From NCBI GenBank assembly GCA_964467575.1, contig CAYXRG010000001.1:42652-106651 (forward strand): a stretch of 64,000 nucleotides of DNA. Direction: 5' to 3'. The notes below the pieces were generated by a model. The model searched no databases. It saw only the letters and a list, made by a program, of their open reading frames with translations, and was not told the DNA's origin. Source of the stretch: an uncultured Caldilineaceae bacterium (GTDB lineage Bacteria > Chloroflexota > Anaerolineae > Caldilineales > Caldilineaceae). The position numbers and the translations under genes were made by a program. Below, in pieces: positions 14,937-23,482 of this stretch. The stretch's first letter is position 1; each line of letters opens with the position of its first letter.

Positions 14937-17636
14937 ATGCCCAAGCCGCGCAAAATTCGCGCCCACTACGTACTTAGCACACACTGGGACCGCGAATGGT
15001 ACCAATCCTTTCAAAATTTCCGCTTTCAGCTCGTCCGTCTACTGGACCGTGTCGTCGACGGGCTAGAGGACGGCCGTCTCCAAGGCCCGTTCCAAACCGA
15101 CGGACAGGCCATCATCCTTGAGGACTACCTCGAAATCAGGCCAGATAAGCGCAGCAAGCTCGAAGAGTTGGCGCAAGCGGGCCGCATGGTGATCGGCCCG
15201 TGGTATGTTCTCCCCGATGAGTTCCTCGTCTCCGGCGAGTCGTTGGTGCGCAATCTGCGCCTCGGTCGCAGCATCGCCCGCAGTTACGGCGTGGAACCGT
15301 CCAACGCAGGCTTCGTCTGCGACCTATTCGGCCACAATAGCCAGATGCCCCAAATCCTCGCCGGGTTCGGCATCAACGGCGGGCTCATCTGGCGCGGCAT
15401 CAACCACCTTCAGTCACGACACGTTCGTTGGCGCTCGCCGGACGGCACCGAGTTGCTCGCCTACCGTTTTCCTGTGGGCGGCTACTGCGACTTCGCCTTT
15501 CAGGTGCGCCACGCGCGCGACTACGAAACGCCGACCACAGCCGCTCGCGTCGCCGAGGACCTGCGCGCCTATCTGCGCCACGAAGCCGAGCATACCGAAG
15601 TCGACCCAATCCTGCTCTTCGACGGCGGCGATCACGAGGAGTGGGACCAGCAAGTCTATGCCGCCATGCTCGATTACGCGGGCAAGGAGGATGAGTTTGA
15701 GATCGTCCACACCAGTCTCGACGCCTATCTTGCCGAGGCGATTCCCCAGGCCAGCCGCGTAGGCGCCGTGGTCGAAGGCGAGCTGCGCGAGCCGGGCACG
15801 CTTCTCTATGATCAGCAGTGGGTGATCCCCGGCGTCCTCTCCAGCCGCGTCTGGATCAAGCAGCTAAACGCGCTGTGCGAGACCTCGCTCTGCACCTGGG
15901 CGGAGCCGACCGCAGCATGGGCGCATCTACAACTAGGCCATGAGGTTCCCCAGGGCTTCTTGGACACCGCATGGAAATGGCTGCTTCAGAATCATCCCCA
16001 TGACTCGATCTGTGGCTGCAGCATCGACGTGGTGCACGAAGACATGAAGTACCGCTTCAGCCAATGCCAACAGATCACCGAACGTCTCACCGTGGAGGCA
16101 ACGCGCAGCCTCGCCGCCAACGTCTCGGGCGGAGTGGGCGACGACGAACTGCGCGTCGTCGTATTCAACCCGCTCACAACCCCCATATCTGCGACCACCG
16201 AGTTGGACCTTCAGATTCCTGTGGACTGGCCGACGTTCAACGAATTCTTTGGGTTCGAGCCGAAACCCTCATTCCGCATCTACGGGCCTGACGGAGAAGA
16301 GATCCCGTACCAGCGCCTGCGCCAGACCAAGAATCGCTTGAAGGGCCGCATCTACGAAACTAAGTTCCCGGTAACGTACCGCACCCATGACGTGCTCGTC
16401 TCGCTGCCGCTCGACATCCCCGCTTCCGGCTATACGACATTGACCGTACGCGCAGGCGGTAAACGAGAGCCGACCCGTTATCCGGTCGTTCCGGGCATGG
16501 CGACGAGCGAACGCTCGATGGCGAACGAGCATCTCGCCGTAGCAATCCAGCCCAACGGCTCGCTCACCATGCGCGACAAACGCACCGGCGCCATCTACGA
16601 ACGGCTGCTGACCTTCGAAGACATTGCCGACATCGGCGACGGTTGGTATCACGGTATGGCCGTCAACGACCAGACTTTCACGTCGACTGCCAGCTCGGCG
16701 GCTGTTGCCCTTGTTCACGACGGCCCGCAGCTAACCACTTTCTACATCCGCACCGTGATGCAGACGCCGCACCGCTTCGTGTTTGGCGATGAGATGCAGC
16801 GTTCGCCGGAACTAGTCGACCTGGTGATCGAAAACTGGATCAGCCTGCGCCCAGGAGCCGCGCACCTGGAGGTTGAGACGGCAGTCCATAACGTTGCCGA
16901 GGATCACAGGCTGCGCGTCCTCTTCCCCAGCGGCGCACAGACCGACACGTACCTGGCCGACAGCCCATTCGACGTTGTTGAACGGCCCATCGCCCTTAGC
17001 AGTGACAACCATCTCTTCCGCGAGTTGGAAGTCGAAACCAAACCGCAGCAGATGTGGACTGCCGTTTTCGACAACGACCGCGGTCTAGCGGTGGTCAGCA
17101 CCGGCTTGCTCGAAAGCGCTATCCGCGATACCCCGGAGCGCACACTGGCCTTGACCCTGCTGCGCAGCACCAGAACCACCGTCGGCACGGATGGCGAACC
17201 GAACGGGTTGCTACTCGGCACATCCAAGTTCCGCTACTGGATCGCGCCGCTGACCGGCGCACCGGATCGCGTTTCCCTCTTCCGGATGGGCCAGCAGCTT
17301 GCCGCCGGCCTGTACGACGTCCAACTCCGTCCAGAAGACATAGCGCTGCATCAGGAGAGCGGTAGACTGCCTGCGGCTGCTTCGTTCCTACGCGTCGATG
17401 GAGATGTTGTGGTCACCAGCGCGCGCATGGTCGACGGCGGCTTCGAGATGCGTTCCTTCAATCCCACCGATCAGCCCGCGGAGGTTGCGATCAGCTTTGG
17501 CAACGACATCCGCTTTTCGCACCTCCAATTTGTCAATTTGGAGAGTAGCCCACTTGACAGACCGGTCCAGATTACCGATAGTATGGCGGTCGTCACGCTC
17601 GAACCGAGAAAGATAGCTACTTACCGATTCCAATAA
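14937..17636 (+). CDS. glycoside hydrolase family 38 alpha-mannosidase (cytoplasmic, MngB/mannosylglycerate-hydrolase-like size)
   Basis: The N-terminal HYVLSTHWDREWY (HxDxxW) and GPWYVLPDEFL motifs are hallmark GH38. Length is 899 aa. No signal peptide is present. Confidence 0.85.
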   Translation: MPKPRKIRAHYVLSTHWDREWYQSFQNFRFQLVRLLDRVVDGLEDGRLQGPFQTDGQAIILEDYLEIRPDKRSKLEELAQAGRMVIGPWYVLPDEFLVSGESLVRNLRLGRSIARSYGVEPSNAGFVCDLFGHNSQMPQILAGFGINGGLIWRGINHLQSRHVRWRSPDGTELLAYRFPVGGYCDFAFQVRHARDYETPTTAARVAEDLRAYLRHEAEHTEVDPILLFDGGDHEEWDQQVYAAMLDYAGKEDEFEIVHTSLDAYLAEAIPQASRVGAVVEGELREPGTLLYDQQWVIPGVLSSRVWIKQLNALCETSLCTWAEPTAAWAHLQLGHEVPQGFLDTAWKWLLQNHPHDSICGCSIDVVHEDMKYRFSQCQQITERLTVEATRSLAANVSGGVGDDELRVVVFNPLTTPISATTELDLQIPVDWPTFNEFFGFEPKPSFRIYGPDGEEIPYQRLRQTKNRLKGRIYETKFPVTYRTHDVLVSLPLDIPASGYTTLTVRAGGKREPTRYPVVPGMATSERSMANEHLAVAIQPNGSLTMRDKRTGAIYERLLTFEDIADIGDGWYHGMAVNDQTFTSTASSAAVALVHDGPQLTTFYIRTVMQTPHRFVFGDEMQRSPELVDLVIENWISLRPGAAHLEVETAVHNVAEDHRLRVLFPSGAQTDTYLADSPFDVVERPIALSSDNHLFRELEVETKPQQMWTAVFDNDRGLAVVSTGLLESAIRDTPERTLALTLLRSTRTTVGTDGEPNGLLLGTSKFRYWIAPLTGAPDRVSLFRMGQQLAAGLYDVQLRPEDIALHQESGRLPAAASFLRVDGDVVVTSARMVDGGFEMRSFNPTDQPAEVAISFGNDIRFSHLQFVNLESSPLDRPVQITDSMAVVTLEPRKIATYRFQ

Positions 17637-17645
17637 AAGGACAAG

Positions 17646-19034
17646 ATGGCAGCCGGTCAAATCGCTCGTACAACTTCCGCTCGAATCCCCACCGATGCAG
17701 GCGATTTCCGGCTCTTCCACTACGTCGGAACTGACCGTAAGGAACACCTCGCCCTCGTCATGGGCGAGGTGTTCGGCGCCGAAAACGTGTTGGCGCGCGT
17801 CCACTCAGAGTGCTTCACCGGCGACGTGCTTGGCTCGCTGCGCTGCGACTGCGGCGAACAACTCCACGCGGCCATGCACCGTATTGCCGCCGAAGGTCGA
17901 GGCGTAATCATATATCTCCGTCAAGAAGGCCGCGGCATCGGTTTGGCGCAAAAGTTGCGCGCCTACAACCTCCAAGACGAAGGTTATGACACGGTTGACG
18001 CGAATCTCTTGCTGGGCCACCAAGCCGACGAGCGGGAGTATTCGGCGGCTGCGGCCATCTTCGGCGATCTGGACGTGCGCTCGATCCGCCTCATGACCAA
18101 CAATCCCTCCAAGCTGGCGCACCTTTCTGAACTGGGCATCCGAATATCGGAGCGCGTACCGCTTCAACCCAGCGTCACAGCCGAAAACGCTGCATATCTG
18201 CGCACCAAGGTGCAGCGCATGCAACACCTCCTCAACTTGCCGCCGGCAATTAACGGGGCCGCGCCGGAATTCGCACTTTCCGAATCTCGCCTGCAGCAGT
18301 TGCTCGAGAGGCTCCTAGCACGCGCCGAAGCGCACTACGCTGCGCACCGTGTCCCCTTTGTGACGCTCAGCTATGCCCAATCGCTCGACGGGAGCATCGC
18401 CGCCGCCGACAGGTCGCCTCTTCGACTGAGCGGCCCCGCGGCCATGCGGCTGACGCACGCCCTGCGTGCCATGCATGACGCGATCCTGGTCGGCGTCGGC
18501 ACAGTTCTTGCCGACGATCCGCGCCTAACCGTACGGCTGGTGGAAGGCGCCCAGCCCCGACCCGTGATTCTGGACAGCCGTCTGCGCATCCCCCGCGATG
18601 CGCGCGTGTTTCAACACCCACAACGCCCGTGGATTGCCGCCGTTCAGTCGGAGCACGTGGCGATCGCCCAGACGCGCATGCCTCGCGCGGATATTCTCTC
18701 TATTCCACAAGACAAGCATGGGCAGGTGGATCTCGAGCGCCTGCTCATTGAACTCGGCAGGCGCGGCATCCGCCACGTTATGGTGGAGGGCGGCGCACAG
18801 GTGCTCAGTAATCTGTTGCGTCTAGGCCTCGCGAACTATGCGGTCATCACCCTGGCCCCTCGCTTCTTAGGCGGCTACCACGTATTTTCTCAACCAGACG
18901 GCAGGCCGGCCTCAACACCCGCCCTGCTCGACGTCGAGCATACTAGCGCCGGCAGTGAGGTAATTCTCTGGGGCGATGTCGCCGCGCCGCAGCCGGCCGC
19001 CGTCGCGGCGACGACAACTGCGGCTGCGGAGTAG
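17646..19034 (+). CDS. fusion protein: GTP cyclohydrolase II (RibA) plus RibD C-terminal-type pyrimidine reductase domain
   Basis: The N-terminal half has RVHSECFTGDVLGSLRCDCGEQL, YLRQEGRGIGL and RAYNLQDEGYDTVDAN (GCH II). The C-terminal half has VTLSYAQSLDGSIAA...HDAILVGVGTVLADDPRLTVR...VMVEGGAQV (RibD_C reductase). No cytidine-deaminase-type domain is present. Confidence 0.85.
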   Translation: MAAGQIARTTSARIPTDAGDFRLFHYVGTDRKEHLALVMGEVFGAENVLARVHSECFTGDVLGSLRCDCGEQLHAAMHRIAAEGRGVIIYLRQEGRGIGLAQKLRAYNLQDEGYDTVDANLLLGHQADEREYSAAAAIFGDLDVRSIRLMTNNPSKLAHLSELGIRISERVPLQPSVTAENAAYLRTKVQRMQHLLNLPPAINGAAPEFALSESRLQQLLERLLARAEAHYAAHRVPFVTLSYAQSLDGSIAAADRSPLRLSGPAAMRLTHALRAMHDAILVGVGTVLADDPRLTVRLVEGAQPRPVILDSRLRIPRDARVFQHPQRPWIAAVQSEHVAIAQTRMPRADILSIPQDKHGQVDLERLLIELGRRGIRHVMVEGGAQVLSNLLRLGLANYAVITLAPRFLGGYHVFSQPDGRPASTPALLDVEHTSAGSEVILWGDVAAPQPAAVAATTTAAAE

Positions 19035-19038
19035 GTAG

Positions 19039-20049
19039 ATGGCGGAACTGCCGGTACAGGCTGTAGTCTTCACGGCGCCCTATACGGTCGAAGTGCGTAA
19101 TCTACCCATCGACGCACCTGCGCACGATCGCCTGCTTGTGAACACGCGTGTCTCGGCCATCAGCGCCGGAACCGAGTTGCTCTTCTACCGCAATCAAGTC
19201 CCCCCCGACATGCCGGTAGACAGCGCCATCGCCGCGCTCACCGGTCATGCCCGCTATCCGCTCCACTACGGTTACGCCTGCATTGGAGAAATCGCAGCCG
19301 TCGGGCCGGAGGGCGATACGGGCATGGTCGGGCGTTCCGTCTTCGCATTTCATCCACACGCAAGCCGCTTCACGGTCGCCCCTGCCGATGTGGTCGAACT
19401 GCCGCCGGAGATGGACGCCGAGCAGGCCTCCTTCCTGCCCAACATGGAGACGGCCGTCTCTCTGCTTATGGACGCCGCACCGTTGATCGGCGAGCGCGTG
19501 CTCGTCTTCGGCCAGGGCGTTGTCGGCCTGCTGGTCACATTCCTTCTCGCCCAAATGCCACTCAGCAGCGTTGTCACCGTGGAGCCTCTTGCCGGGCGCA
19601 GACGACTTTCACTGGCATTGGGCGCGTCCCTGTCGGTTCAGCCTGATGCTCTCGTCGGTCTGGAGATGGACTCGCCTGACCTTATCCTGGAACTCAGCGG
19701 AAATCCGCACGCGCTGGACCAGGCGGTTCAGGCCGCCGGGTATGCCACGCGCATAGTCGTCGGCTCTTGGTACGGCACAAAACCCGTAGAGTTAACCCTG
19801 GGCGGACGCTTCCACCGCAACCGCAATGCCCTGATCTCAAGCCAAGTCAGCACGATACCGCCTGCGCTGACGGGACGGTGGACAAAGCGCAGACGCCTGT
19901 TCTCTGCGTTGCGCAGCCTCCAAATGCTGCCCTATAAAGAACTGATCTCGCACCGCATTCCGGTGCACCACGCGTCCGAAGCCTATCGACTGCTTGACCA
20001 GAATCCCGATCAAGCCCTACAGGTATTGCTCACATATCGAAATATGTAA
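19039..20049 (+). CDS. medium-chain dehydrogenase/reductase superfamily protein lacking the catalytic Zn ligands
   Basis: GroES-like N-domain followed by a FGQGVVG Rossmann motif. The usual CGxCxSD and GHE positions read SAISAGTELL and YGYACIGE, so no Zn site is predicted. Confidence 0.75.
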   Translation: MAELPVQAVVFTAPYTVEVRNLPIDAPAHDRLLVNTRVSAISAGTELLFYRNQVPPDMPVDSAIAALTGHARYPLHYGYACIGEIAAVGPEGDTGMVGRSVFAFHPHASRFTVAPADVVELPPEMDAEQASFLPNMETAVSLLMDAAPLIGERVLVFGQGVVGLLVTFLLAQMPLSSVVTVEPLAGRRRLSLALGASLSVQPDALVGLEMDSPDLILELSGNPHALDQAVQAAGYATRIVVGSWYGTKPVELTLGGRFHRNRNALISSQVSTIPPALTGRWTKRRRLFSALRSLQMLPYKELISHRIPVHHASEAYRLLDQNPDQALQVLLTYRNM

Positions 20050-20092
20050 CGCCGCGCGGCAATGAGCCGCCGACGATCACACAGAGGCATCC

Positions 20093-20479
20093 ATGTACAC
20101 ACTAGCAGTGAAGCGAGATTTCGTAGCTCAGCATTACCTGATCGGCGGAGACTGGGGTGCTGAAAATGACTGGCATTCCCATCATTACGCGCTAGAACTC
20201 CAGCTAACCGGCTCAGAACTGGATCGCCACGGCTACCTGGTTGATATCGTGGCCGTCGAGCGAGAATTGAATGAGATTGTGTCCCGTTACCGCGACAAGA
20301 CGCTCAACGACCTCCCCGAGTTCGATGGTCTCAACCCTAGCATCGAACACTTCACGCGCATCGTCTGCGAAGCCTTAGCCCAGCAGCTCAGTTTTCTCAA
20401 TCTCGACTCAATTTGCATCAAGATCTGGGAGAACGACATCGCCTGGGCAAGCTATCGGCTGGCGCTCCCTCGGCGTTAA
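20093..20479 (+). CDS. PTPS/QueD-fold (6-pyruvoyl-tetrahydropterin synthase family) protein, atypical active site
   Basis: 128 aa. The pattern DFVAQHY...WHSHHYALELQL...LNDL...NPSIEH follows the QueD/PTPS pattern (three His plus Glu). The catalytic Cys and the DHH segment are not conserved. Confidence 0.8.
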   Translation: MYTLAVKRDFVAQHYLIGGDWGAENDWHSHHYALELQLTGSELDRHGYLVDIVAVERELNEIVSRYRDKTLNDLPEFDGLNPSIEHFTRIVCEALAQQLSFLNLDSICIKIWENDIAWASYRLALPRR

Positions 20480-20489
20480 GTTTCTGCGG

Positions 20490-21596
20490 ATGGCCTTACG
20501 CATCGCCCTCATCATCTACGGCGACCTGTCTACAACGTCCGGCGGTTTTCTCTATGACCGGATGCTCGTGCAGCGCCTGCGCTCGGCTGGCGCACAGGTG
20601 GAGATCATCGCCCTCCCCTGGCGCAGTTATGTGCGCCATTTATTCGACAACTTCTCGCAGAGTTTACTTGAGTGTCTCGCTGCCCGCGGGCGATACGATA
20701 TCGTCCTGCAAGATGAGCTAAATCACCCGTCGCTATTCCTGCTGAACTGGAGACTGCGAAGGCAACAGGGCCGTCCGCCGCTTGTCTCTATCGTTCACCA
20801 TCTGCGCAGCGACGAGCAGCATCCGCCATACTTGCGGGCCGTATATCGCACCGTGGAGGGCATCTACCTGCGCTCCGTCGACGGCTTCATCTGTAACAGT
20901 GAGTCCACCAGAGCCAGAGTTCGTGCACATCGCAACGGGCATCTCGACGGCGTCACCGCCTACCCGGCAGCCAACCATATAGGGCCGCCCGCCGCTGAGC
21001 GGGTTCACGCCCTCATCGCAGAGCGTTGCCGGCATAGCAGCCCGTTACAGGTTCTCTTTGTCGGTAACGTCATCCCGCGTAAAGGCTTGCATACGCTTCT
21101 TGTCGCCCTCGGCGCACACATGCGCGCCGAGTTCCGCCTGCATGTCGCGGGCAGCCTCGAGACCGATCCTGCATATGCAGCCCAGATAGCACACGCTGTA
21201 CGCCGGCTAGGTCTTGAGCAACGGACCGCGCTCTATGACAGCGTCTCCATCGAGCAACTGCGCGATCTCTATCGCACCTGCGACATACTCGCCGTGCCGT
21301 CATATGAGGGGTTTGGCATCGTCTACCTAGAGGCAATGAGTTTCGGCATGCCCGTCATCGCCGCCACAACCGGGGCCGCCCACGAGATCGTCACCGACCG
21401 TATCGACGGCTTCCTCGTGCCGCCCGGCGACGCCAAGGCGATTGGCGACGCCATTTCGGCGTTGGCAGCAGACAGGACCCTGCTGGCCCGCATGGGCGAA
21501 GCAGCACGCAAACGCTACGATCGCCATCCCACTTGGCATGAAACCTTCTCCCAGACACAAGCCTGGCTGTGGCAGTTCGCCAGGCAGGCGCATTGA
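20490..21596 (+). CDS. GT4-family (GT-B, group 1) glycosyltransferase
   Basis: The N-terminus has a TTSGG donor-fold start. The C-terminus has EGFGIVYLEAMSFGMPVIAATTGAAHEIV (E-x7-E region). Confidence 0.85.
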   Translation: MALRIALIIYGDLSTTSGGFLYDRMLVQRLRSAGAQVEIIALPWRSYVRHLFDNFSQSLLECLAARGRYDIVLQDELNHPSLFLLNWRLRRQQGRPPLVSIVHHLRSDEQHPPYLRAVYRTVEGIYLRSVDGFICNSESTRARVRAHRNGHLDGVTAYPAANHIGPPAAERVHALIAERCRHSSPLQVLFVGNVIPRKGLHTLLVALGAHMRAEFRLHVAGSLETDPAYAAQIAHAVRRLGLEQRTALYDSVSIEQLRDLYRTCDILAVPSYEGFGIVYLEAMSFGMPVIAATTGAAHEIVTDRIDGFLVPPGDAKAIGDAISALAADRTLLARMGEAARKRYDRHPTWHETFSQTQAWLWQFARQAH

Positions 21597-21597
21597 A

Positions 21598-22566
21598 ATG
21601 GTATCCGATCAACCGCAAACTTTTACGCGCTATCTGGCGTCGAAGCGTACAGTAGACGACCGCGCCCTGAATGCCCACGTCTGGCAACGCTTCGCCCACA
21701 CGGTTCGCCGCTTCAATGACGATCGATCCGCGCCTGTGCGGATGCTGGAATTGGGCGCGGGCATTGGTACTATGATCGAGCGGCTCCTTGCCGCCGGTCT
21801 GCTGCACAATGCCGAGTACATTGCCATTGACGCCTCTGCAGAGAACATCGAACTCGCAGCTGAGCGTCTCAGACAGCAGGCAGCCGCAGACGGACGCAGC
21901 GCAGCCGTCGCGCCGCATGCGCCGGGTACGGGTCCAGCCTATGCGATCGAGTTAGCTCCGGACAGGGCGTCTACGGTCCGTCTAATGACCGCCGATGCGT
22001 TCGACTACCTGGCGGGCAAGGCTGCGGCCGTCGACGTCCTGCTCGCCCACGCGTTCCTCGACCTGGTGAACCTGCCGCGCATCCTAGAGGCCATCCGCCC
22101 CGCGCTCGCCCCAGACGCTCTGCTATACTTCACGATCAATTTCGACGGAGCGACCATTCTTGAACCCACGATCGATCCGGCCCTGGATGAACTGATCGAG
22201 CGGCTTTACCACGCGACAATGGATAGCCGCCTGGTCGACGGCCGCAACTCCGGCGACAGCCGTACAGGCCGCCATCTCTACCACTCCCTGCTCAATGCCG
22301 GCTATGAAGTGCTTGCCGCGGGCGCGTCCGATTGGGTGGTCGGCCCCATGCCTGACGGTTACCCAGACGACGAAGCCTTTTTCTTGCATTTCATTGTCGA
22401 CACCATCGCCGGCGCACTAGAGGACAACCCGGCTCTTGACCGAGCCGTATTCGCGCAATGGATAACTGAGCGTCATCGCCAGATCGACCAACATCGTTTG
22501 GTCTTCATTGCGCACCAACTTGACTACCTGGCTCGGCCGCGAGCGCAGCGAGGCGCGCCGGCCTAA
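21598..22566 (+). CDS. class I SAM-dependent methyltransferase
   Basis: ATG at 21598, one nt after the GT4 stop. Motif I is MLELGAGIGTMIERLL. The ORF-track start at 21442 overlaps the GT4 gene and is rejected. Confidence 0.8.
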   Translation: MVSDQPQTFTRYLASKRTVDDRALNAHVWQRFAHTVRRFNDDRSAPVRMLELGAGIGTMIERLLAAGLLHNAEYIAIDASAENIELAAERLRQQAAADGRSAAVAPHAPGTGPAYAIELAPDRASTVRLMTADAFDYLAGKAAAVDVLLAHAFLDLVNLPRILEAIRPALAPDALLYFTINFDGATILEPTIDPALDELIERLYHATMDSRLVDGRNSGDSRTGRHLYHSLLNAGYEVLAAGASDWVVGPMPDGYPDDEAFFLHFIVDTIAGALEDNPALDRAVFAQWITERHRQIDQHRLVFIAHQLDYLARPRAQRGAPA

Positions 22567-22581
22567 GGCGGGACGAAAACA

Positions 22582-22612
22582 ACAGGCCGCCCACATACAA
22601 GCGGCGGCCTGT
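22582..22612. terminator. 10-bp GC-rich hairpin between convergent genes
   Basis: ACAGGCCGCC (22582-22591) pairs with GGCGGCCTGT (22603-22612) across an 11-nt loop. It lies between the methyltransferase stop (22566) and the hydrolase stop (22667). Confidence 0.45.
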
Positions 22613-22666: not shown

Positions 22667-23482
22667 CTACGCCTCCGGGTATACGTCGCCTAAGAACTCC
22701 CGTACCGCTTCCACGTAAGCCGCGAAGCGGTCACGCCGGATGTTGTGTCCGGCCCCCGCGATATGCGCTAAACGGAAGCGCGGATTCATATCAACGATGC
22801 GCGCGGCCATCTCCGCAGTCACAATGCCGCCCAACGCCGGCTCGCCGGTGATCACCAGCGCAGGGCACTGGACGCTCTGTAAATAGTCCGTCCATGTTGC
22901 ATCTTCAGCCGTAATGTACCTCACCACGTTCGGGCTGACCTGGCGTTTAGCGTCCGCCCAGGGAGCGAAGACGGCAGCCGGCCATTGAGGGTTCTCGGCA
23001 CGCCCCTCCGCTACCAGTTCCTCGATGCTCTTCGCGTGCCGCTGACGGATGCGCTCCGACCACTCAGCCGCAGCAGCGGGGTCCGCCACAGACTTGCCCA
23101 AGTCGCGGATGGGCGGATCTTCCAGCAGGATGCAGCCGACCGCGTGCGGATAGCGCGCCGCCAATACAATCGACGAGCCGGCGCCCATCGAATGGCCGAG
23201 AACCGCCGGCCTCTCCAGACCCAACGCCGCGATCAAGCCGGCCAAGTCGGCGGCGTGCTCTTCGCGCCCATAGCCTTCATCCGGCTTCTCCGATTTACCG
23301 TGTCCCCTGGCATCGACCGCTATCAGATCGTAATCGGGCGCAAGTTCTGCGGACAGCAGCGGCCAGCACATGCCGCTGTCAGTGATGCCGTGGGCCAACA
23401 CCAGCGGCGGCTTATCTCCGCCCGACCGGTAATAATGCAGCCGTATGCCGTTGGTTAGTACATCGCCCTCTTGCCAGTTCAC
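22667..23482 (-). CDS. alpha/beta-fold hydrolase
   Basis: GHSMGAG nucleophile elbow and an HG oxyanion segment (VLAHGITDSG). Length is 271 aa. Confidence 0.85.
   Translation of the reverse strand: MNWQEGDVLTNGIRLHYYRSGGDKPPLVLAHGITDSGMCWPLLSAELAPDYDLIAVDARGHGKSEKPDEGYGREEHAADLAGLIAALGLERPAVLGHSMGAGSSIVLAARYPHAVGCILLEDPPIRDLGKSVADPAAAAEWSERIRQRHAKSIEELVAEGRAENPQWPAAVFAPWADAKRQVSPNVVRYITAEDATWTDYLQSVQCPALVITGEPALGGIVTAEMAARIVDMNPRFRLAHIAGAGHNIRRDRFAAYVEAVREFLGDVYPEA

Follow-up and report, generated by a model that had tools for sequence, protein, structure and literature searches.

The window, a stretch of 64,000 nucleotides from an uncultured Caldilineaceae bacterium of the phylum Chloroflexota (positions 42652-106651 of contig C1 in the host assembly G000, which is 95.9 % complete), contains at positions 20093-20479 a gene for a 128-residue protein with the PTPS/QueD fold, hereafter the PTPS-like protein. 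The gene lies in a cassette of five co-directional genes, separated by gaps of 1 to 43 nt, that extends from 17646 to 22566. When compared with the signatures of PTPS-I to IV, the protein is by sequence a member of a separate Glu-type clade close to PTPS-IV, in which a near-invariant glutamate takes the place of the catalytic cysteine of QueD. The genes of the cassette and the key codons of the PTPS-like gene, all on the forward strand, are listed here.

17646-19034, forward strand: GTP cyclohydrolase II (GCH II; residues 9-172; PF00925 at 3.3e-66) fused to a RibD-type pyrimidine reductase (residues 237-440; PF01872 at 3.2e-44), without a deaminase domain
19039-20049, forward strand: MDR-superfamily dehydrogenase, BchC-like or polyol-phosphate-dehydrogenase-like (TIGR01202 BchC at 7e-24, below the cut-off)
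20083-20087, forward strand: AGAGG, resembling a ribosome-binding site, five bases 5' of the ATG of the PTPS-like gene (read from the sequence)
20093-20479, forward strand: PTPS-like gene (PTPS/QueD fold, COG0720, Glu-type clade, 128 aa; from PF01242, alignment, an AlphaFold2 (AF2) model and Foldseek)
20132-20134, forward strand: codon of His14
20162-20164, forward strand: codon of Glu24 (GAA)
20174-20176, forward strand: codon of His28
20180-20182, forward strand: codon of His30
20291-20296, forward strand: codons of Arg67-Asp68
20345-20347, forward strand: codon of Glu85
20429-20431, forward strand: codon of Glu113
20490-21596, forward strand: GT4 (group 1) glycosyltransferase, starting 10 nt past the stop codon of the PTPS-like gene (PF00534 at 1.5e-32)
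21598-22566, forward strand: S-adenosylmethionine-dependent methyltransferase of 322 aa, its Met one base after the GT4 stop codon (PF08242, PF13649; start read from the translation)

Residues 4-122 of the PTPS-like protein matched Pfam PF01242 with 87.4 bits against a cut-off of 22.4, and the AF2 model, with a predicted local distance difference test score (pLDDT) of 97, showed a T-fold, with its four-stranded sheet and two helices, that can be superposed on solved members of the family. Foldseek placed SCO6650 first (3D7J; template modelling (TM) score 0.91, root-mean-square deviation 1.5 Å) and E. coli QueD second (TM 0.81), followed by animal and Plasmodium PTPS; SCO6650 was also the best solved match by sequence profile (E 3e-19). 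A first-pass annotation made from the sequence alone had called the gene product a T-fold protein of the PTPS/QueD kind, which is borne out by the PF01242 score and by the comparison of the model with QueD and PTPS. The strings on which that annotation relied are all present: VAQHY (with His14), AENDWHSHHY (Glu24, His28 and His30), YRDKTLNDL (Arg67 and Asp68) and NPSIEH (Glu85). The first Cys of the protein is residue 92, and its N-terminus, MYT/MYS..., is common to the homologues. The Glu-type clade comprises 314 clusters at 50 % identity (E up to 1e-10) from bacteria and archaea, and every homologue that carries a name in its source is labelled QueD or PTPS, for example '6-carboxytetrahydropterin synthase'.

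To compare the active site with that of QueD, two alignments were used. For the first (A1), an exhaustive HMMER search supplied 74 full-length representatives that share 33-57 % identity with the query; the second (A3) held E. coli QueD (annotated K-12 record) and nine Chloroflexota QueDs with CxxxHGH and Asp-His. In E. coli QueD, His16 and the HGH pair bind zinc, Cys27 on a short helix beside the metal is the active-site nucleophile, and His71 is a member of the catalytic triad (PMC9894224). Profile-profile alignment of A1 to A3 with hhalign (probability 99.9 %, E 1.3e-33) paired the residues of the PTPS-like protein with those of E. coli QueD in the following way: His14 with His16, Glu24 with Cys27, His28 with His31, His30 with His33, Arg67 with Asp70, Asp68 with His71, Glu85 with Glu86, and Glu113 with Glu110. 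The zinc-ligand positions of QueD are therefore occupied by three histidines, His14, His28 and His30, and in the alignment to the QueDs neither Cys nor His was found at the catalytic Cys or Asp-His positions. The first-pass annotation had reported that the catalytic Cys and the Asp-His segment were gone, and this is what the alignment returned, with Cys27 replaced by Glu24 and Asp70-His71 by Arg67-Asp68; a Cys and a His at the catalytic positions, which would have spoken against it, were looked for and did not appear. Its statement that the zinc site is kept applies to the PTPS-like protein itself and not to the whole family, as His28 is Asn in some orthologues.

At the position of QueD Cys27, all 119 close homologues have the glutamate, Glu24, as do about 93 % of 117 distant representatives; the complete Glu24/His28/His30 pattern was seen in about 97 of these 117. 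Within A1, His14, His30, Asn72 and Glu85 are invariant and Glu24, His28, Asp51 and Glu113 each reach at least 90 %, and across the clade Glu24 is better conserved than the metal-ligand position His28. The column aligned to Asp70-His71 of QueD (Arg67-Asp68 here) is variable across the family. Because Glu24 is near-invariant at the Cys position, the acid/base residue is, on the evidence of the alignment, swapped (Cys to Glu24) rather than lost. The earlier proposal of a different acid/base chemistry was right in that Cys and Asp-His are replaced, and it overlooked the conserved glutamate. Glu24 would lie beside the metal site, as suggested by its alignment with QueD Cys27 and by the short helix at residues 22-25 of the AF2 model, which bears it. 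A precedent for a catalytic Glu at work in this fold is Plasmodium vivax PTPS, for which the PDB titles of 3LZE and 3M0N read 'E37C/E37A catalytic residue mutant'.

The published signatures of the subfamilies are CxxxHGH for PTPS-I/QueD, CxxxxxHGH for PTPS-II and ExxHGH for PTPS-III; of PTPS-V and PTPS-VI, the former is described as unclear in function and the latter as a folate enzyme (PMC5041015). The motif of the PTPS-like protein, G-A-E-N-D-W-H-S-H, matches none of the first three. Read against PTPS-I, it has Glu24 at the Cys27 position (E-N-D-W-H-S-H), there is no Asp-His, and the QueD equivalog TIGR03367 gave 43.1 bits against a cut-off of 89.25. Read against PTPS-II, the residue six before His28 is Gly22, TIGR00039 gave 27.9 bits against 125.5, and the '6-pyruvoyl-related' NCBIfam model was also far under its cut-off. 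Read against PTPS-III, Glu stands at -4, Asn at -3 and the histidine pair is HSH. A place in a characterised PTPS subclass, which would have undermined the first-pass assignment, was thus looked for among PTPS-I, II and III, and both the motifs and the model cut-offs were missed.

For PTPS-IV, the published signature is FGPAQ and the published genome neighbourhood consists of GCH II (PF00925) and RibD_C (PF01872) (PMC5445326). The PTPS-like protein has WGAEN in place of FGPAQ, its clade reads [WF]G[AP]E[NG] and relatives read FGPEN; from sequence, the two motifs are clearly homologous, with Ala replaced by Glu. The neighbourhood is present in the window, as the fusion gene lies 1 kb upstream. 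The AGeNNT paper labels PF00925 'GTP cyclohydrolase I / FolE2' (PMC5445326); since PF00925 is GTP cyclohydrolase II, the 'FolE2' in the PTPS-IV neighbourhood is really GCH II. A quick maximum-likelihood tree, built on few columns and with Shimodaira-Hasegawa-like approximate likelihood ratio test (SH-aLRT) support only, separated two groups by a branch with SH-aLRT 95. One comprised the window protein together with 37 representatives and the remaining Glu-type proteins of Chloroflexota; the other comprised the QueDs, a group with FGPAT...HGH and the SCO6650 type, the last two being sisters.

Among known members, SCO6650 of Streptomyces coelicolor (3D7J, PTPS-IV) shares with the PTPS-like protein the lack of the catalytic Cys and Asp-His and the retention of the anchoring Glu; it differs in having Ala at the positions of Glu24 and His30, whereas the window protein has all three histidines. 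SCO6650 was reportedly found to be without zinc by Spoonamore and colleagues in 2008. E. coli QueD (PTPS-I) has the same fold and equivalents of the histidine triad, Glu85 and Glu113, but its Cys27 and Asp70-His71 are replaced here, its gene neighbourhood is another one, and the host genome shows no GTP cyclohydrolase I (GCH I). The PTPS-III enzymes of Plasmodium and bacteria, which form 6-hydroxymethyl-dihydropterin, likewise have Glu instead of the catalytic Cys; in the window protein, however, this Glu is one residue further from the histidine pair (ExxxHxH) and the context is GCH II, not GCH I.

Of the other four products of the cassette, the fusion protein exceeds the cut-offs of TIGR00505 and TIGR00227, and its reductase domain fits the bacterial RibD C-terminal model better than the archaeal one. 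Its GCH II domain contains a tyrosine in ...KLRAYNLQ..., which we take to be that of the canonical diaminopyrimidine-forming type of Spoonamore et al. 2006. The MDR dehydrogenase matched L-threonine 3-dehydrogenase and galactitol-1-phosphate 5-dehydrogenase in the PDB; it reads ...SAISAGTE... and ...YGYACIGE... and is without the usual GxCxxD and GHE zinc-ligand strings, so that, like its best model match BchC, it may be zinc-free. The PDB relatives of the GT4 protein are generic (sucrose-phosphate-synthase-like proteins, MshA, BshA), with tetrahydrobiopterin glucosyltransferases in the middle of the ranking; the pteridine glycosyltransferases stand no nearer to it than MshA or the sucrose-phosphate synthases do. 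A complex prediction for GT4 and the PTPS-like protein scored 0.00, which carries no weight either way on binding. A known parallel is the biopterin-glycoside route of cyanobacteria and Chlorobium, made up of GCH I, PTPS, sepiapterin reductase and a GT4-type pteridine glycosyltransferase. As in the cassette, genes for a PTPS-fold protein, a dehydrogenase or reductase and a GT4 protein occur together; in contrast, the entry in the window is GCH II with a RibD-type reductase, the dehydrogenase is of the MDR and not the SDR type, and the PTPS-II catalytic residues are missing. The pteridine glycosyltransferase of Chlorobium has been assigned to a GT1/AviGT4-like family (PMC5683033).

In the host genome, a significant PF01242 match, GCH II and RibD_C each occur once, in the cassette; no second gene of the PTPS/QueD family was found. 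GCH I (PF01227), FolE2 (PF02649), RibH (lumazine synthase), RibB (DHBP synthase), CofH, HPPK (FolK), FolB, a true DHPS and a RibD-type deaminase were not found in the 95.9 %-complete assembly. With the riboflavin, F420, folate and GCH I genes not found, the sole GCH II and RibD-type reductase seem to serve only the cassette, which on the same negative results looks self-contained. To our knowledge every characterised COG0720 enzyme acts on dihydroneopterin triphosphate (H2NTP), and for this compound no source is evident in the host. The first-pass annotation had pointed to a GCH II rather than a GCH I context and to a substrate other than H2NTP; the first agrees with the fusion gene upstream and with the failure to find GCH I, and the second gains support from the missing GCH I and FolE2 and from the cassette fusion being the only GCH II and RibD_C of the genome. 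Synthesis of riboflavin, F420, folate and preQ precursors therefore seems to be beyond the host (no search for QueC or QueE was made).

As a separate observation, the host is probably a riboflavin and folate auxotroph, yet it retains one GCH II and one RibD-type reductase. Roles of the cassette in F420 or riboflavin synthesis were considered for this genome and ruled out, as CofH, RibH and RibB were not found. No lipid genes lie beside the cassette in the host genome, and its ComB-like phosphatase gene, which has a homologue in some cassettes, is located among unrelated genes.

The distribution of the cassette was examined in a sample of 401 Chloroflexota genomes searched with A1 (E up to 1e-10). 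Matches were found in 167 of them, a count that includes two unpublished genomes (G145 and G227) on which nothing else in this account depends. The matches comprised three sets, namely orthologues with E of about 1e-47 to 1e-55, proteins of a second tier, and QueDs. Genes of the cassette occur in about 30 of the 40 Chloroflexota neighbourhoods surveyed. In 28 of these 40 the PTPS-like gene has a GT4 gene no more than about 150 nt away, often only a few bases, and in 26 it has an MDR gene upstream; GCH II and/or RibD_C is a neighbour in 14, and GT4 has a methyltransferase gene after it in 10. The gene order MDR, PTPS-like, GT4 is conserved, often with GCH II and a deaminase-less RibD-type reductase, and the cassette recurs across Chloroflexota and other phyla. 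Some classes have the Glu-type protein in its slot, and others the FGPAT...HGH type. The genuine QueDs of Chloroflexota (CENLHGH and DH) stand outside the cassette, in small genomes, and form a separate group in the tree; a Chloroflexota protein of the SCO6650 type (L079) also stands alone. The distribution is patchy, with an orthologue in 7 of 81 evenly sampled genomes of the class and two genomes of the same family without it.

Variants of the cassette differ in their additional genes. In an Anaerolineae family (f2), the cassette includes a PlsC-type acyltransferase, LPG_synthase_TM (MprF flippase-type), a small DUF7475-like protein and sometimes a ComB-type phosphatase. These cassettes are without GCH II; in two complete genomes that were checked, the GCH II gene is located far from the cassette, beside a deaminase-less RibD_C in an operon that is not a rib operon. 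This separate operon (L086:6234-10588 in G258:C1; L088 in G043:C1) holds RibD_C, GCH II, SDR, alpha/beta hydrolase, EamA and Nudix genes, and may be the second half of a split pathway; in the window, too, an alpha/beta hydrolase gene is found right behind the cassette. In two genera of another family (f21; L068-L070 and L062), the only FolB (dihydroneopterin aldolase) of the genome abuts the RibD_C of the cassette; at L068-L070 a methyltransferase precedes FolB and an unannotated protein of 379 aa follows GT4. On a Syntrophales-type contig, RibD_C, MDR, PTPS, GT4 and methyltransferase genes occur in this order beside a gene for CDP-alcohol phosphatidyltransferase, and another contig carries a CDP-alcohol phosphatidyltransferase, a sulfatase-like gene, RibD_C, an MDR-sized open reading frame without a Pfam match, and PTPS. 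Our literature search returned no characterised product for a cluster of PTPS, GCH II and glycosyltransferase.

Based on these results, we propose that the PTPS-like gene encodes a re-tooled T-fold member that contributes a step to a self-contained pathway, encoded by the five genes, which leads from GTP to a glycosylated, methylated metabolite, a reading to which we give about even weight. The GCH II domain would convert GTP to 2,5-diamino-6-ribosylamino-4(3H)-pyrimidinone 5'-phosphate, and the fused reductase would produce the ribityl form, 2,5-diamino-6-ribitylamino-4(3H)-pyrimidinone 5'-phosphate, in which the 2-amino-4-oxo face would be retained because no deaminase is present. The MDR enzyme would then oxidise or reduce a side-chain carbon; the closest of its characterised relatives oxidise polyols and polyol phosphates at a secondary alcohol. 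In the T-fold protein, Glu85 would bind the 2-amino-4-oxopyrimidine face, the His-bound metal would hold and polarise the side-chain oxygens, and Glu24 would act as the general base that takes a C-H proton, as the catalytic Glu of Plasmodium PTPS does. The outcome could be an isomerisation or ring closure, a beta-elimination, or a retro-aldol cleavage. GT4 would subsequently add a sugar and the methyltransferase a methyl group. Catalysis would combine the metal with Glu24 and act on a 2-amino-4-oxopyrimidine or pterin intermediate derived through GCH II; the end product could be a soluble glycoside of a pterin or pyrimidine, or a head group in the membrane. The first-pass suggestion of a T-fold enzyme with altered acid/base chemistry and a substrate other than H2NTP is supported in its outline by the sequence and genome evidence together.

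A more specific form of this proposal, which we regard as a minority possibility, is a pterin route independent of GCH I. Reduction at C1' followed by MDR oxidation at the ribityl C2' would replace the Amadori step of GCH I, of which the T-fold protein is a distant relative, and the latter would close or process the ring and side chain to give a glycosylated, methylated pterin, or, in the relatives with lipid genes, a GTP-derived head group. The product of such a bypass would be a pterin resembling dihydroneopterin phosphate, which fits the adjacency of FolB in family f21. The head-group version points to the cassettes of relatives with genes for CDP-alcohol phosphatidyltransferase, PlsC and MprF-type flippase domains.

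Several observations weigh against the proposed five-gene pathway. The genome is about 96 % complete, so the missing genes may sit in gaps. Asn takes the place of His28 in 14 of 21 Chloroflexota proteins of the Glu type that were compared, and in about 9 % of the representatives; active-site residues also differ among proteins in the same slot of the cassette, the FGPAT...HGH clade having Ala at the Glu24 position; with residues varying in a shared slot, a binding or scaffolding role fits as well as catalysis. Glu-type homologues occur alone in haloarchaea, in Legionella wadsworthii and on a metagenome contig (L007). GCH I is present in 22 of 27 other cassette-bearing genomes. In addition, one cassette-bearing genome (G418; 96 % complete, 250 contigs) shows neither GCH I nor GCH II, which reflects a gap in the assembly or, otherwise, contradicts a de novo origin from GTP.

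The alternative that survives best, in our view still an unlikely one, is that the protein is not an enzyme and serves as a ligand-binding, carrier or scaffold subunit that presents a pyrimidine or pterin intermediate to GT4 or to the MDR enzyme. Residues of the catalytic type vary within the slot (Glu24 against Ala, His28 against Asn, and Ala for His30 in the SCO6650 type), those kept everywhere are the ligand-anchoring Glu85, Glu113 and His14, and GT4 almost always lies directly 3' of the PTPS-like gene. In the Glu-type clade, however, the conservation of Glu24 and His30 roughly equals that of the anchor Glu85, which is hard to explain without chemistry, and a full His triad with a carboxylate is a typical catalytic arrangement.

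A second alternative, which we consider improbable, would make the protein the missing pyrimidine C2-deaminase, with water on the His3-bound metal and Glu24 as proton shuttle converting the 2,5-diamino to the 5-amino-uracil form in place of the RibD deaminase domain. The fusion is without such a domain, no RibD-type deaminase was found in the genome, the His3 site with Glu resembles hydrolytic zinc sites, and the better fit of the reductase to the bacterial RibD model also suits this idea. We know of no archaeal pyrimidine deaminase for the F420 pathway. The invariant Glu85 speaks against deamination: this is the residue by which a T-fold protein anchors a 2-amino-4-oxo ring, and in the known structures of PTPS and QueD it keeps that edge away from the metal, which contacts the side chain. 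A deaminated product would furthermore have no known use in a genome where RibH, RibB and CofH were not found. PTPS-IV has been described as 'involved in F420 synthesis' on the strength of unpublished work (PMC5041015), and that synthesis needs a deaminated pyrimidine, a point in favour of the deaminase.

We give still less credence to a PTPS-III-like activity that would form 6-hydroxymethyl-dihydropterin, for folate or for a pterin glycoside, from dihydroneopterin (tri)phosphate. PTPS-III also has Glu for Cys (ExxHGH), FolB abuts the cassette in family f21, and a PTPS, a reductase and a GT4 pteridine glycosyltransferase make up the known biopterin-glycoside route. Against this, Glu is at -4 and not -3, the pair is HSH and not HGH, the clade is apart from QueD and its relatives in the tree, and neither GCH I and FolE2 nor HPPK, FolB and a true DHPS were found in the genome. 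That the protein is an ordinary QueD (6-carboxytetrahydropterin synthase) or PTPS, as the public names of its homologues say, is highly improbable in view of the missing Cys at -4 or -6, the missing Asp-His, the TIGR03367 score of less than half the cut-off, the failure to find GCH I, and the genuine Chloroflexota QueDs that form their own group outside the cassette. As a side observation on these stand-alone QueDs, those of small Dehalococcoidia-like genomes (L060-L067, L072, L077, L078) read C-E-N-L-H-G-H, that is CExxHGH, the dual-function PTPS-I/III pattern.

The cassette is flanked by the following features.

17554-17582, forward strand: sigma-70-like promoter match TTGACA-17-GATAGT (10 of 12 positions; consensus level), in the 3' end of a GH38 gene, 64 nt before the cassette
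22586-22605, reverse strand: GC-rich hairpin with a T-run at the end of the cassette, between it and the convergent alpha/beta-hydrolase gene
22667-23482, reverse strand: alpha/beta-hydrolase gene, convergent with the cassette and just after it

By sequence, the cassette may have a promoter of its own and be transcribed separately from the upstream sugar operon; the promoter scan is weak, with two sites found against 2.0 in shuffles. The GC content is even across the region (0.57-0.64) and gives no sign of recent transfer.

PTPS-IV is the nearest of the named classes; its link to GCH II and RibD_C is already known (PMC5445326), and the window protein is a Glu-bearing variant of that kind with a full His triad. 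What is new, at the level of aligned residues, is the split of the Glu type from FGPAQ and the conservation of Glu24 beyond that of one metal ligand; in addition, GCH II of the host genome seems to be used by the cassette alone. COG0720 is a textbook case of mis-annotated paralogues, and the homologues of the window protein that have a source name are all called QueD or PTPS. The host genome offers a natural experiment in that its sole GCH II and RibD-type reductase seem to be reserved for the cassette, which argues for a complete and autonomous pathway from GTP to product. Such autonomy would make heterologous reconstitution of the five genes a direct route to the product and to the reaction of a Cys-less T-fold protein, including those of the SCO6650/PTPS-IV group.

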